Below, in pieces: positions 56,011 through 59,702 of a DNA stretch of 63,343 nt. The position numbers and the translations under genes are program-made. The stretch covers positions 1 through 63,343 of the forward strand of contig JAQUPS010000007.1 in NCBI GenBank assembly GCA_028716485.1, given 5' to 3'. The notes under the pieces were generated by a model. It did no database searches, had not been told where the DNA came from, and saw only the letters and a list, made by a program, of their open reading frames with translations. This stretch comes from Patescibacteria group bacterium. Its GTDB lineage: Bacteria > Patescibacteriota > Patescibacteriia > Patescibacteriales > WJLG01. Each line of letters starts with the position of its first letter. Positions within the stretch are counted from its first letter, which is position 1.

Positions 56011-56124
56011 TTAATTATTTTTGTCCTCTTTATCTTTTTTTGAATCCTCAATCACTCCGGCAACTATCGCGCCGACGACCAGCAAAATAAAAACAATAAT
56101 GCCAATTCCCAACATACTTTTCAT
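56011..56124 (-). CDS. Possible 37-aa single-TM small protein, start overlapping the ileS stop (ATGA)
   Basis: My translation is MKSMLGIGIIVFILLVVGAIVAGVIEDSKKDKEDKNN. Its ATG at 56122-56124 overlaps the ileS TGA at 56121-56123. It is below the ORF-track size cutoff. Confidence 0.4.
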   Translation of the reverse strand: MKSMLGIGIIVFILLVVGAIVAGVIEDSKKDKEDKNN

Positions 56125-59100
56125 ATTTTTTTAATTTTTATAATCAATTTCTCTCCGTTGGCTTCAACCGCTTTGCCGCCATCGGTGGCGCCGATGATTA
56201 TTTTGTCGGCCAAAACATCTTTTTTCAAATCGGCTTCAAAAGTTTTGACGGCATTTTTTACTGCTTCGCTTTCAGTGGCAATCGTTAGAATAATTTTATC
56301 ATTGATAGTTAAATCGGCGTTCTTGCGTTCGGCATTAATGAATCTAACCAGCTCACGCTTCAAACCCTCGGCGATCAATTCCGGCGTCATCGTTATATCC
56401 AATTCTACGGAGATTTCTCCCCCCCCTTCTTCGGTGATTATCTCTTTGACGTTCAGCTCATCTTTGAGCAAATCAAAATAAATAATTTTTAATTTTGCAT
56501 TTTTAATTTTTAATTGAGCGAGAGGCTGGCGGACTTTTATCTCCGCTTCGTCGCGCTTGGCCAAGCCCATCTCCACGACTTTGCGCGCCAAAGCCATCTC
56601 CTCAATAATTTCTTTTTGCTCGTCATCCTTTTCATAATTAACCCATTCTTCTAGATGCACCGAGGCTTCGGGATTAGCAAAATTATTGCCGGTGACTTTT
56701 TGCCATAATTGTTCGGCGATGAACGGCGTGAACGGCGCCATAACCTTGGCCAAATCGGTCAGAACCAAACGAGTAGTCGCCAGCGCGGATTTTTTGTCTT
56801 CGCCTTCATCTTTAAATCTATCTCTGCTCCTCCTTAAATACCAAGTGGAAAAATCATCGATGAACTGGGCAATCGGACGCGTCGCGCGCGGCAGATCGTA
56901 TTTTTTCATCCCCTCGCTCACTTCAGAAACTAACTGATTTAAGCGGGCAATAATCCATTTATCCAAAATATTCTTCGGTTCATAATCTGCCTGGAAACCC
57001 ACCCCGTCTCGCGAGGCGCGAGCCACCCCTCCCGCGGAGGGGAATTCGTACATCTCGTAGAATTTATAAACATTCCAGAGAATCATATTCACTTTGCGCA
57101 GGCAATCGGCCACGGCTTTTTCGGAAAAATTCAGATTTTCCGCGGTCATCACCGGCGAAGTCAAAAGATAATAGCGCAAAGCGTCGGCGCCGTATTTTTC
57201 CAAAATGATTTCCGGATCAGGATAATTTTTCAGCCGCTTGGACATTTTCTTGCCGTCTTCGGCTAAAACTATTCCATTGACGATGACATTTTTGTAGGCA
57301 AAATTATTGCGGATGCCGGCGGCCAAGGCGTGCAAATAATAAAACCAGGTGCGAGTTTGGTCAATGCCTTCGGCGATGAATTCAGCCGGAAAATTATGTT
57401 CGAATCTTTCCTTATTCTCGAACGGATAATGCATCTGCGCGTACGGCATCGAACCGGATTCGAACCAGCAATCCAAAACATCGCTCACTCGTTTCATTTC
57501 GCCGGGACAGACATCGCATTGCAAAGCGATATTATCGACAGAATCTTTATGCAAATCGATTTCTTTCTTGGTGGAATTATTGACATAGACGATCTTGAAC
57601 TCGCCTTTATGAGTATGGTTCGGCCCATAAAGCGACAGACCGGCTTCATGTTTGGTCCTGCCTCTCAATATGCTGATCAGGTCATCAATAGGATCGGAAT
57701 GCGAAACGATTATAATAGTTTTGCCGCTATTTTTTTCCAAAGTTCCGAGCAGCCATTGATACATCCGCTCGCCGACTTCGGTTTGGGTTTCGCCTGTTCC
57801 GCCGACGCGGATATCCATCATCTCTTCAGGCGCGGCAGCCAGATATTTTTGGCGCGATTCATCATGCTTAGCCAGCTCGTCGCGATTTTTATCATTCCAA
57901 TCTCCCAGCGCGATCTCTCTTAATTCATCAGCTGCAGCGAATTCCAGCCCCAAAATCTTGCCGATTATTTCTGCGCTTTCCCTGGTGCGCAAAACCGGCG
58001 AGGCATAAAAAACGATCTTATCTTTTTGTTCATCGGCAAGTTCACTTTTCAATTTTTCCGCGGTGGCGGTTATCTGCGCCCGTCCTTTTTCGGTTAAATT
58101 ATATTTATCCTGGCCGGAATAAATTATGTTGGCCGCGTTGCTTTCCGCTTCGCCGTGGCGGACTAAAATCAATTTGGTCAGCTGGCCGTTGGCATGGCGA
58201 TAAAATTCTTCCAGCGACCCGATGACTTTTTTGGCGCCGCAGGGGCATTGCCAGATCGGGATGCAGGAAGCCCAGAAACGCTGGCGGGAAATCGACCAGT
58301 CGCGCGCGCCTTCCAGCCATTTGCCGAAACGGCCGGCCTTGATATGCTCCGGCGACCAGTTGATCGCCTCGGCCAATTCCAGCATCCGCGGTTTTATTTT
58401 GGCGATTTTGACGAACCAAGAAGAAGTGGCGTAATTGATGAGCGGCGTGTCGCAGCGCCAGCAGAACGGATAGCTATGCTCGTATTTTTCCTTGGCGAAT
58501 AATAAATCTTTACCGGCCAGATATTTGATGATGGCGACGTCGGTTGATTGCACATCTTCGATCGGCTTCACGTGCAGGCCGGTGAACTCGCCCATTTCCT
58601 TTTTGAAAGTTCCGTCCATGCCGACGTGCTGGACAAAGGGCAAATTATAATCGCGGCCAAGATTCATATCAGCTTCGCCGAAAGCCGGCGCGATATGCAC
58701 GATGCCGGTGCCGTCCTCGGTAGTCACGAATTCGCCATGATAAATCTTCCAGCCATTTTCGCGGTTAGCCAATGTTTCATCCTTCGCATAAAAATCAAAC
58801 AGCGGCTTATATTTTTTGCCGATCAACTCTGCCCCCTTAAATTCTCTAATTATTTCAAATTCCTTATCTCTTAAAACGTCATTAATTCTTTCTTTCGCCA
58901 AAATAATTCTTAATTCTTCATTCCCTGCCTTGCCGGCAGGCAGGTTAATTCTTAATTCGCAATAGTCAATCTCTTTCCCGACCGCCAGCGCGACATTTCC
59001 CGGCAAAGTCCATGGCGTGGTCGTCCAAGCTAAAACATAAACACCGGGCTCGTCGACGAGTTCAAATTTTACGGTCACCGACAAATCTTTAACATCGCGA

Positions 59101-59702
59101 TAGCCTTCCGCCACTTCCGATTGCGACAAAGTCGTTTCACAGCGCGGACAAATATACATAGAGCGGTAATCCTGATAGATCAGATCGTTATCCCAAAGCT
59201 GTTTGAACGCCCACCAAACCGATTCCATATAAGACAAGTCCATAGTGCGATAAGGATTTTCCATATCCGCCCAGCGGCCCAGCCGGCGGATCGTTTTTTT
59301 CCATTCCTCGGTGAATTCAGCCGCCCGTTCGCGGCAAAGCGCGTTGAATTTAGCTACGCCGATTTTTTCCTCGATTTCTTTTTTGCTTTTGGTGCCCAAT
59401 TCTTTCTCGACGATATTCTCGATCGGCAAGCCGTGGCAATCCCAGCCCCAGCGGCGCGGAATCTGGTAGCCGTTCATCGTCCAAAAACGCGGCACCGCGT
59501 CTTTCATCAAGCTGGCGACCAGATGGCCGTAATGCGGCGTGCCGGTAGCGAACGGCGGACCATCGTAAAAAACATACTCGCCGCGCGGAGCTTCTTTGGC
59601 AATGGATTTTTCGAAAATCTTATTCTTTTCCCAAAACGCCAAAACTTCCTCCTCCATCCCGACAAAGATATTTTTCTTCTCCTGATTATTTTTTTGAACC
59701 AT
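56121..59702 (-). CDS. ileS: Isoleucyl-tRNA synthetase with an inserted histidine-phosphatase domain
   Basis: 1193 aa. HIGH is PHYGH (aa 56-60) and KMSKS is KMSKR (aa 819-823). Also WSISRQRFW and DCWFESGSMPYAQ. Aa ~510-712 carry the RHG histidine-phosphatase motifs. Confidence 0.95.
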   Translation of the reverse strand: MVQKNNQEKKNIFVGMEEEVLAFWEKNKIFEKSIAKEAPRGEYVFYDGPPFATGTPHYGHLVASLMKDAVPRFWTMNGYQIPRRWGWDCHGLPIENIVEKELGTKSKKEIEEKIGVAKFNALCRERAAEFTEEWKKTIRRLGRWADMENPYRTMDLSYMESVWWAFKQLWDNDLIYQDYRSMYICPRCETTLSQSEVAEGYRDVKDLSVTVKFELVDEPGVYVLAWTTTPWTLPGNVALAVGKEIDYCELRINLPAGKAGNEELRIILAKERINDVLRDKEFEIIREFKGAELIGKKYKPLFDFYAKDETLANRENGWKIYHGEFVTTEDGTGIVHIAPAFGEADMNLGRDYNLPFVQHVGMDGTFKKEMGEFTGLHVKPIEDVQSTDVAIIKYLAGKDLLFAKEKYEHSYPFCWRCDTPLINYATSSWFVKIAKIKPRMLELAEAINWSPEHIKAGRFGKWLEGARDWSISRQRFWASCIPIWQCPCGAKKVIGSLEEFYRHANGQLTKLILVRHGEAESNAANIIYSGQDKYNLTEKGRAQITATAEKLKSELADEQKDKIVFYASPVLRTRESAEIIGKILGLEFAAADELREIALGDWNDKNRDELAKHDESRQKYLAAAPEEMMDIRVGGTGETQTEVGERMYQWLLGTLEKNSGKTIIIVSHSDPIDDLISILRGRTKHEAGLSLYGPNHTHKGEFKIVYVNNSTKKEIDLHKDSVDNIALQCDVCPGEMKRVSDVLDCWFESGSMPYAQMHYPFENKERFEHNFPAEFIAEGIDQTRTWFYYLHALAAGIRNNFAYKNVIVNGIVLAEDGKKMSKRLKNYPDPEIILEKYGADALRYYLLTSPVMTAENLNFSEKAVADCLRKVNMILWNVYKFYEMYEFPSAGGVARASRDGVGFQADYEPKNILDKWIIARLNQLVSEVSEGMKKYDLPRATRPIAQFIDDFSTWYLRRSRDRFKDEGEDKKSALATTRLVLTDLAKVMAPFTPFIAEQLWQKVTGNNFANPEASVHLEEWVNYEKDDEQKEIIEEMALARKVVEMGLAKRDEAEIKVRQPLAQLKIKNAKLKIIYFDLLKDELNVKEIITEEGGGEISVELDITMTPELIAEGLKRELVRFINAERKNADLTINDKIILTIATESEAVKNAVKTFEADLKKDVLADKIIIGATDGGKAVEANGEKLIIKIKKI
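56995..57046. repeat. Relative of the 57-nt element inside the ileS CDS (opposite orientation)
   Basis: aaacccacccc-gtCTCGCGaggCGCGAGc-cacccctcccgcggaggggaatt shares both ends with the reverse complement of 27446-27502 but has a different central hairpin. It encodes EFPSAGGVARASRDGVGFQ. Confidence 0.65.
58905..58958. repeat. GC hairpin flanked by a 12-bp direct repeat inside the ileS CDS
   Basis: AATTCTTAATTC (58905-58916) recurs at 58947-58958 around CCTGCC-ttgcc-GGCAGG. It encodes ELRI-NLPAGKAGNE-ELRI. Confidence 0.75.

Follow-up and report, generated by a model that had tools for sequence, protein, structure and literature searches.

A copy of a 20-nt palindromic repeat in the isoleucyl-tRNA synthetase gene of a Patescibacteria genome

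Introduction

How does a gene for an essential enzyme come to carry, in frame, a short GC-rich hairpin bracketed by a direct repeat? The question is raised by ileS (56121..59702, - strand), the isoleucyl-tRNA synthetase (IleRS) gene found on contig JAQUPS010000007.1 of a Patescibacteria group bacterium. The whole 63,343-nt stretch of DNA analyzed is hereafter named the window. A preliminary description of this DNA had proposed that the editing-domain region of ileS contains a 42-nt (14-codon) insertion flanked by a 12-bp target-site duplication, and that it reflects an active or recent mechanism placing small hairpin modules into DNA. In this study, we sought to define the insert, its empty site and its relatives in other genomes. 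Results indicated that the feature is probably one copy of a dispersed 20-nt palindrome, hereafter named PAL, which landed in a pre-existing (GAATTAA)n segment; this segment encodes ELRIKNEELRI, a beta-hairpin of the IleRS editing domain (CP1).

Results

The ileS gene and its GC-rich repeat

The open reading frame (ORF) of ileS is 3582 nt long and its 1193-aa translation contains the Pfam domains tRNA-synt_1 (1.2e-129), Anticodon_1 (1.1e-32) and DUF5915, which place it in the Ile/Leu/Val/Met group of class I synthetases. The segments PHYGHL, KKMSKRL and WTTTPWTLPGN are present, which we take to be the HIGH-type, KMSKS-type and threonine-rich CP1 editing motifs, and by these features the protein is a class Ia isoleucyl-tRNA synthetase. 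The gene is present in a single copy, being the sole E=0 (full-length) IleRS match in the source genome (G000), a 99%-complete, 1.15-Mb genome in 28 contigs.

The 12-bp repeat that had been reported around a GC-rich hairpin is present. The sequence AATTCTTAATTC was read directly in the window at 58905-58916 and 58947-58958, and a repeat search extended it to 13 nt (TAATTCTTAATTC, two heptamer units), with a first copy at 58904..58916 and a second at 58946..58958 (+ strand, spacing 42). This is one of only two direct-repeat families within 150 nt in ileS, and the GC-rich core CCTGCCTTGCCGGCAGGCAGG (58924-58944) lies between its copies. The core has a single match in the window at ≤3 mismatches, and none of 100 shuffles gave any. 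The 12-mer AATTCTTAATTC is found six times at ≤1 mismatch, against 1.74 expected, a count reached by 0 of 100 shuffles. In the protein, the region is read as ELRI-NLPAGKAGNE-ELRI (aa 249-266, ELRINLPAGKAGNEELRI). The hairpin formed by the ileS copy is modest, with a 7-bp stem, energies of -6.0 and -6.8 kcal/mol (DNA, two strands) and z values of -1.7 and -2.1.

Two public assemblies, the first probably the source of this DNA and the second from another sample of the same study, contain the stretch and its insert with 0 differences, and the insert is therefore not an artefact of a single assembly. An adapter or linker artefact was rejected by reasoning, given the contiguous gene or tRNA flanks, the mutated and length variants, and the frame kept when coding; the two agreeing assemblies and the copies in cultured isolates described below further counter it.

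The insert is 21 nt long and entered an older heptamer array

The limits of the insert were given by its empty site. A search of 5.8 billion proteins identified as closest relatives the IleRS proteins P0003 and P0004 (81-82% identity over aa 150-420), which read DYVELRIKNEELRIILAKER, i.e., ELRIKNEELRI without the core; another IleRS, P0002, reads CEVRIKNEDLRFVLAKER at this site. At the DNA level, the metagenome contig L195 shows the empty site GAA TTA AGA ATT AAG AAT GAA GAA TTA AGA ATT, and the coding strand of the window reads GAA TTA AGA ATT AA[C CTG CCT GCC GGC AAG GCA GG]G AAT GAA GAA TTA AGA ATT. At this site, L195 is the G000 sequence minus 21 nt, with identical flanking bases (32/32). 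The insert proper (58924..58944) splits one Lys codon (AA|G), adds seven codons (LPAGKAG) and changes the Lys into Asn, with no target duplication and no base loss. Two array halves, uninterrupted in L195, surround it: GAATTAAGAATTAA (58945..58958, - strand; ELRI + AA) upstream in the gene direction, and GAATGAAGAATTAAGAATT (58905..58923, - strand; G + NEELRI) downstream.

Since both ELRI units are intact in P0003, P0004 and L195, the repeat predates the insert, which measures 21 nt and seven codons instead of the 42 nt and 14 codons first proposed, and the idea of a target-site duplication is not supported. The flanking 13-nt 'duplication' consists of two units of an older (GAATTAA)n array. 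In two genomes of the same genus (G001 and G002), the ileS site reads DYIELQITNDKLQIEKYILAKER and the DNA is a heptanucleotide array, (ATTACAA)n; the 'xLxI' strand pair is therefore older than the GC-rich core. Among 121 inspected IleRS proteins, a PAL-type peptide was found only in that of the window. A 42-nt tandem duplication followed by divergence was also considered and rejected by eye, as 12 of 27 bases match outside the repeat.

Heptamer arrays are found elsewhere in the gene and in the genome. A second array in ileS (56484-56515, - strand) encodes QLKIKNAKLKI, where relatives read ELRIKNYELRNEY and similar peptides, and its unit changes in concert between lineages, being (GAATTAA) in G002 and (GAATTAC) in G004. 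Genome-wide, 773 of the 2483 arrays reported by Tandem Repeats Finder in the 1.15 Mb of G000 have a period of 7, with many different units. In the preliminary description, a duplication explained by a generic low-complexity repeat of the gene was to count against the proposal, and these arrays match that case.

A dispersed palindrome found in several phyla

The insert is a variant, one base longer, of the 20-nt perfect palindrome CCTGCCTGCCGGCAGGCAGG (PAL). G000 carries 12 exact copies of PAL, 16 within one mismatch and 21 within three edits; inclusion of 16-nt forms (one CCTG unit fewer) gives 24 PAL-like sites. The earlier view of a small GC-rich hairpin module inserted in frame in an essential gene is supported, and the membership of this module in a dispersed family implies a mechanism that places such modules. 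The ileS 21-mer itself has no other occurrence in G000.

At the order level, 23 of 41 genomes were positive for PAL (≤1 mismatch). Copy numbers per genome were 0-40, and the reversed control had no match in any of the 41. Among 301 genomes drawn evenly across the phylum, 61 contain exact PAL with up to 24 copies (control 0). A wider scan, with one genome per species, revealed PAL on at least 120 contig stretches. The stretches belong to Patescibacteria lineages and to Bacteroidota, Omnitrophota, Planctomycetota, Gamma- and Deltaproteobacteria, Bdellovibrionales, Thermodesulfovibrionales and Chloroflexi, cultured isolates included. Four cultured Bacteroidota isolates carry 49, 39, 6 and 1 copies (≤2 mismatches), and a complete WWE3 genome carries three. 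Several variants are specific to a genome: a single G-to-A change is common to most of the listed G035 copies, and a Flavivirga isolate has a recurrent form with two changes. Such variant subfamilies argue for a copy-from-copy spread. A text search of 8.4 million papers and preprints, with subscription journals and supplements outside its scope, found neither the PAL 20-mer nor its 18-nt core, and word searches of this literature returned analogous elements only. PAL is apparently an undescribed cross-phylum 20-nt palindromic repeat.

Precise PAL insertion and recurrent sites in modules and tRNA fragments

We evaluated the precision of PAL insertion from uninterrupted copies of its junctions. 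For 16 of the 151 exact sites, the junction is also found uninterrupted within 400 nt (0-2 sites in each of 20 permutation controls), and at these 16 sites PAL corresponds to exactly 20 added bases with no duplication. When target duplications of 3-10 nt were sought at the 151 sites against permuted flanks, none was enriched except the length of 7 nt.

Five copies in G000 (ileS, C2:32910, C6:18761, C17:3379 and C4:55647) are located at the identical point of one AT-rich module, AATTAA^GAAWGAAGAATTAAG, and the last four also adjoin the ileS flank GAATTAAGAATTAA. Empty modules are found at C1:115011, C2:40523, C2:83753 and C24:5275. When the printed flanks were read by eye, an orientation as ^GA was possible for about 13 of the 21 G000 copies. 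The flanks of 163 sites are biased, with A at 0.39 and T at 0.13 in position -1, T at 0.44 and A at 0.07 in position +1, and TC| or |GA at 52 sites. A 32-nt module, AATTAAAAATTAAAAATGAAAAATTAAAAATT, has 42 matches at ≤5 mismatches (0 shuffled), many of them inside long ORFs.

Many of the sites with an intact junction nearby are partial 5' or 3' duplicates of a neighboring tRNA gene, with PAL at a D-loop or T-loop position. G000 contains about 14 tRNA-end fragments, six of which carry PAL, and none of its 47 intact tRNAs does. The fragments (e.g., C1:28866, C2:344, C5:35093, C8:44265, and C15:23412 and 23666) lie 50-300 nt from intact tRNA genes, with 5' pieces upstream and 3' pieces downstream. 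At C15:23540-23614, a tRNA-Ile with anticodon TAT (ARAGORN) has PAL-bearing near-copies on both sides. A role of PAL as a tRNA intron was rejected, since only one of 163 junctions gave a spanning tRNA after in-silico PAL removal and intact tRNAs lack PAL. ARAGORN also called two tRNAs with very long 'introns' of 1337 and 2913 nt in G000 (C11:11830-13253 and C12:6687-9697), which are possibly group I introns or false calls.

Outside G000, a one-mismatch PAL precedes the ileS start by about 87 nt in G002 (C34:60362-60381; L002:5205), with TTGAAAATT on both sides. In a Chitinophagaceae isolate (L179, L184 and L192), PAL copies are flanked by heptamer arrays, e.g., (GTTCAGC)n and (AAACGCT)n. The association between PAL and 7-nt arrays, seen in a cultured member of Bacteroidota, is therefore cross-phylum.

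PAL is depleted from open frames and the G000 copies in long conserved genes are 21 nt long

According to rough ORF calls, 17 of the 21 G000 copies are located between ORFs, and the classes of ORF pairs at PAL (12 tandem, 3 divergent and 1 convergent) are similar to the background (756, 100 and 106). An exact PAL lies in a frame open over at least 60 codons on each side at 22 of 163 sites, compared with 428 of 810 random windows; PAL is depleted about four-fold from open frames, without being absent from them. The frames through PAL read LPAGRQ (12 sites), PACRQAG (6 sites) and CLPAGR (4 sites), and some of the hosts are presumably FtsK-like, GatB-like and dTDP-glucose-dehydratase-like, judging from motifs in their peptides.

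Both G000 copies found inside long conserved genes are 21-nt variants. One is the ileS copy and the other, CCTTGCCTACCGGCAGGCAGG, is located in an Elp3-like radical-SAM/GNAT gene (C13:4642-6306; L283/L286; Pfam), in a heptamer-encoded loop, QLKV-TLPTGRQE-NEKLKI. The G001 orthologue of the Elp3-like gene has a heptamer array without PAL, and two further copies of the CCTTGCCTACCGGCAGGCAGG variant, at C5:18647 and C21:6793, have flanks similar to those in this gene (three copies in G000), which likewise favors a copy-from-copy spread. By comparison, the 12 exact 20-nt copies are all outside long ORFs, and the open frames through them reach at most 129 aa. In an essential single-copy gene, a copy would be retained only with a length divisible by three, which would explain the extra base in the ileS PAL, and the 21-nt copies in genes fit selection for length.

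The insert is modeled as the tip of a variable surface hairpin

An AlphaFold2 model of IleRS, built from 56 sequences, has a mean predicted local distance difference test (pLDDT) score of 85.3. The insert is modeled as the turn between two strands (246-252 and 264-269). Residues 258-260 have a pLDDT below 50, and block 251-260 has a mean of 64, between blocks of 96 and 84. The loop directly follows the WTTTPWT motif and is hypervariable among relatives, from 'KVEIEGEKY' (about 9 residues) to more than 60 residues. In relatives, it hosts other GC palindromes (L217, CATCCCCGCGAAGGCGGGGATCC; L221; L020) as well as other heptamer arrays (L233, (GGAATCA)4; L248; L219; G010/L208). We infer that this location accounts for the tolerance of ileS: the insert would lengthen the tip of a hypervariable surface hairpin.

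Other features of ileS

Two further features were observed in ileS. A whole His_Phos_1 domain (8.7e-32) is inserted in the catalytic core (57651-58172, - strand; aa 511-684). This histidine-phosphatase insert keeps the RHGE motif, is compact in the model (pLDDT blocks 89-97) and is found only in a subset of relatives, e.g., P0002-P0005, G002-G004, G008 and G031. A word search of the literature returned no paper linking IleRS with a histidine-phosphatase domain.

The second is another GC-rich repeat (57000-57042, - strand; aa 889-905), organized as CCCCTC-loop-GAGGGG-TGG-[variable hairpin]-ACGGGGTG and read as the peptide PSAGGVARASRDGVGFQ, with a pLDDT below 50. This CCCCTC/GAGGGG family has at least 42 copies in G000, in units of about 40-80 nt, some with a second hairpin unit; four of the copies form a tandem at C4:67011-67200. 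Changes in one side of the second hairpin's stem are matched on the opposite side. In G001, the loop of the first hairpin of this repeat is occupied by PAL.

Discussion

A proposed mechanism for the ileS insert and the points against it

We favor the explanation that ileS received one PAL copy in an older heptamer segment. PAL would be a mobile DNA, non-autonomous and able to form a hairpin, whose new copies derive from existing ones and insert with precision. In G000, it would go preferentially 5' of GA, with AT-rich heptamer modules (AATTAA^GAAWGAAG) and the D-loop or T-loop sequences of tRNA-gene fragments as preferred targets. The most likely mover would be a trans-acting single-strand (HUH/Y1-like) enzyme or another site-directed enzyme, and recombination between near-identical repeat flanks would assist the spread. 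In ileS, only a copy with a multiple of three bases would survive, from which the extra base would follow. It is conceivable, although we consider it doubtful in this full form, that PAL is a mobile element not described so far and perhaps smaller than any other known: a bare 20-nt perfect palindrome moving copy-to-copy, base-precise and without duplication, shared by Patescibacteria, Bacteroidota, Omnitrophota, Planctomycetota and Proteobacteria, preferring tRNA-like loops and heptamer arrays, and occasionally creating a new LPAGRQ-type protein loop in essential enzymes.

Several observations weigh against this explanation. No mobilizing enzyme was identified: Y1_Tnp matches were found in 7 of 10 genomes with at least 10 PAL copies and in 10 of 18 genomes with none. 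Two PAL-carrying genomes, G030 (16 copies) and G040 (19 copies), have no Y1_Tnp match and G022 has a strong match with 0 PAL, a comparison limited by the incompleteness of metagenome-assembled genomes. PAL was found within 1.5 kb of a Y1_Tnp gene at only one exact and one three-mismatch locus of 20. A Y1/HUH transposase as PAL mobilizer was tried and rejected, as Y1_Tnp neither tracks PAL counts, in the 41 relatives or in five other genomes, nor is flanked by PAL. In addition, known HUH transposases use asymmetry, which a perfect palindrome lacks. G000 itself contains a gene for a 165-aa IS200-type Y1 transposase at a contig end (C18:18607-19104; L031:1456-1953), with no PAL in the 1.5 kb covered around it.

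Recent activity could not be documented either. No presence/absence polymorphism was seen at 58600-59300 in four runs, from contigs only, and no ileS contig lacking the insert was found there, a result that is uninformative either way; the 'active or recent' mechanism of the preliminary description is not borne out. A '58930 left out 1' signal corresponded to other 20-nt PAL copies piling onto the palindrome. Being unique, the ileS 21-mer points to no donor, and no one known mechanism readily accounts for an identical 20-mer in several phyla. A 7-nt flanking repeat is enriched at 6 of 151 sites when exact (control 0.10) and at 10 of 151 at ≤1 mismatch (control 0.41), and some PAL events may have been accompanied by a 7-bp duplication. 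We read this excess as PAL lying in heptamer arrays, with no general scar. Finally, insertion in hairpin loops as a general rule is weak (6.63 versus 6.05 spanning pairs, p=0.07), next to single clear cases of PAL inside the loops of pre-existing hairpins.

Alternative explanations

The alternative that survives best is that PAL is not self-transposing, and that a heptamer module together with its PAL spreads by homologous recombination or gene conversion among the numerous near-identical AT-rich modules, ileS having acquired PAL from a second, already filled module. In its favor, the flanks of ileS match those of C2:32910 at 13-14 nt on one side and at 19 of 20 nt on the opposite one; between the Elp3-like gene and C5:18647, the common flanks of the 21-nt variant extend over about 16 and about 24 nt; and the module family has 20 and 42 matches at ≤5 mismatches versus 0 shuffled. 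For ileS itself, however, the flanks are those of the empty L195 site (32/32) and retain GAATGAAG, a place at which the candidate donors read GAAAGAAG, and the 21-mer has no donor in G000. PAL is also found in unrelated contexts such as tRNA fragments, other hairpins and other phyla. We consider this explanation unlikely overall, although gene conversion among modules is a live alternative for the copies located in modules.

The identity of the 20-mer across phyla and the many copies located 1-41 nt from rough-ORF ends could also suggest that PAL is under selection as a cis-element and is not selfish DNA (acting as a terminator, as a stabilizer hairpin or as a site bound by protein or RNA), the ileS copy being functional as an mRNA structure or a peptide loop. 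Such a function is very improbable, given that the ORF-pair classes match the background without convergent or downstream excess, that the distribution of PAL is patchy, with 18 of the 41 related genomes having none, and that copies lie inside dead tRNA fragments, that the hairpin of the ileS copy is weakened, that none of 120 other IleRS has the PAL peptide, and that no Rfam family other than two tRNAs reached the gathering score in the window. A terminator in particular was rejected because the orientation of neighboring genes matches the background, with rough ORF calling. Lastly, the insertion of 42 nt (14 codons) as a module that left a 12-13-bp target-site duplication is scarcely credible: it would account for the exact 13-nt repeat with spacing 42 around the core and for the different loop lengths of the same-genus G001 and G002, but the core is missing between the two ELRI units of P0003, P0004 and L195, the site holds a homologous (ATTACAA)n array in G002 and G001, no duplication of 8-10 nt was found at 151 PAL sites (lengths tested to 10 nt), and the 16 sites with an intact local copy gained 20 nt without duplication.

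Comparison with known repeats

The favored candidate, a PAL copy inserted as short mobile DNA, was compared with known systems. PAL resembles repetitive extragenic palindromes (REPs), Rickettsia palindromic elements (RPEs) and yeast mitochondrial GC clusters with other mitochondrial hairpin elements, but it has the defining features of none of them. Unlike miniature inverted-repeat transposable elements, PAL has no core between its two 10-nt arms and no general duplication (only the 7-nt excess at 10 of 151 sites). Elements derived from IS200/IS605 have two different, imperfect subterminal hairpins, whereas PAL is a single perfect 20-nt palindrome. Such elements also insert beside a fixed short target sequence and without target duplication; PAL shows no duplication at the 16 sites with a junction copy, and its target bias is partial (TC| or |GA at 52 of 163 sites).

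REPs are described as short GC-rich palindromes, multi-copy, mostly extragenic and occasionally intragenic, and those associated with REP-associated tyrosine transposases (RAYTs) as having an unpaired GTAG or CGTC tag at one end (PMC3733652). PAL agrees with this account of REPs and REPINs as 20-40-bp GC-rich palindromes present in many, mostly extragenic copies (PMC3733652), and like REPs it inserts without target duplication. It differs from REPs in being a perfect palindrome, with one 20-mer across many phyla, and in lacking a tag (GTAG at 4 and CGTC at 7 of 163 sites, versus 4 and 6 in the control). In contrast to REPINs, it is seldom paired (three pairs within 300 nt), and in contrast to RAYTs, the Y1_Tnp genes are not flanked by it (1-2 of 20 loci).

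RPEs are presented as palindromic repeats of about 105-146 bp, read through in frame inside Rickettsia genes at tolerant sites (PMC3184786). PAL is likewise found in coding genes, in frame and at tolerant sites; it differs in being 20 nt long, in needing a length variant to keep the frame and in being cross-phylum, RPEs being listed for Rickettsia in that source (PMC3184786). Yeast mitochondrial GC clusters are described as short GC-rich hairpins in AT-rich DNA with short flanking repeats, copy-number variation and subfamilies, and their transposase is given as unknown (PMC4478555). PAL is similarly a short GC-rich hairpin spread through AT-rich DNA, without general flanking repeats and in a bacterium instead of an organelle (PMC4478555). 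For the (GAATTAA)n context, the nearest precedent is the TAACTGA heptamer arrays of Beggiatoaceae, Cyanobacteria and Bacteroidetes, described as mostly intergenic, patchy across phyla and with no known mechanism (PMC4679880). The arrays studied here differ from that description by their many units, by their additional presence in frame in conserved proteins and by hosting a palindrome (PMC4679880).

Biological meaning

Taken alone, the ileS feature is ordinary and of modest interest: an essential synthetase accommodates a surface hairpin lengthened by seven residues at its tip. The value of the feature is that this hairpin exposed a dispersed, cross-phylum palindrome, present in about one fifth of the sampled Patescibacteria and studiable in cultured strains. 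If PAL is mobile, it would set a lower bound on the size of a transposable unit and offer a tractable system for finding the enzyme; should such an enzyme be found in a cultured PAL-rich Bacteroidota strain, the mechanism would become directly testable. Together, PAL, the heptamer arrays and the second GC-rich element in ileS illustrate how short repeats remodel the loops of core proteins in reduced genomes, which bears on the many unexplained protein insertions of the phylum.

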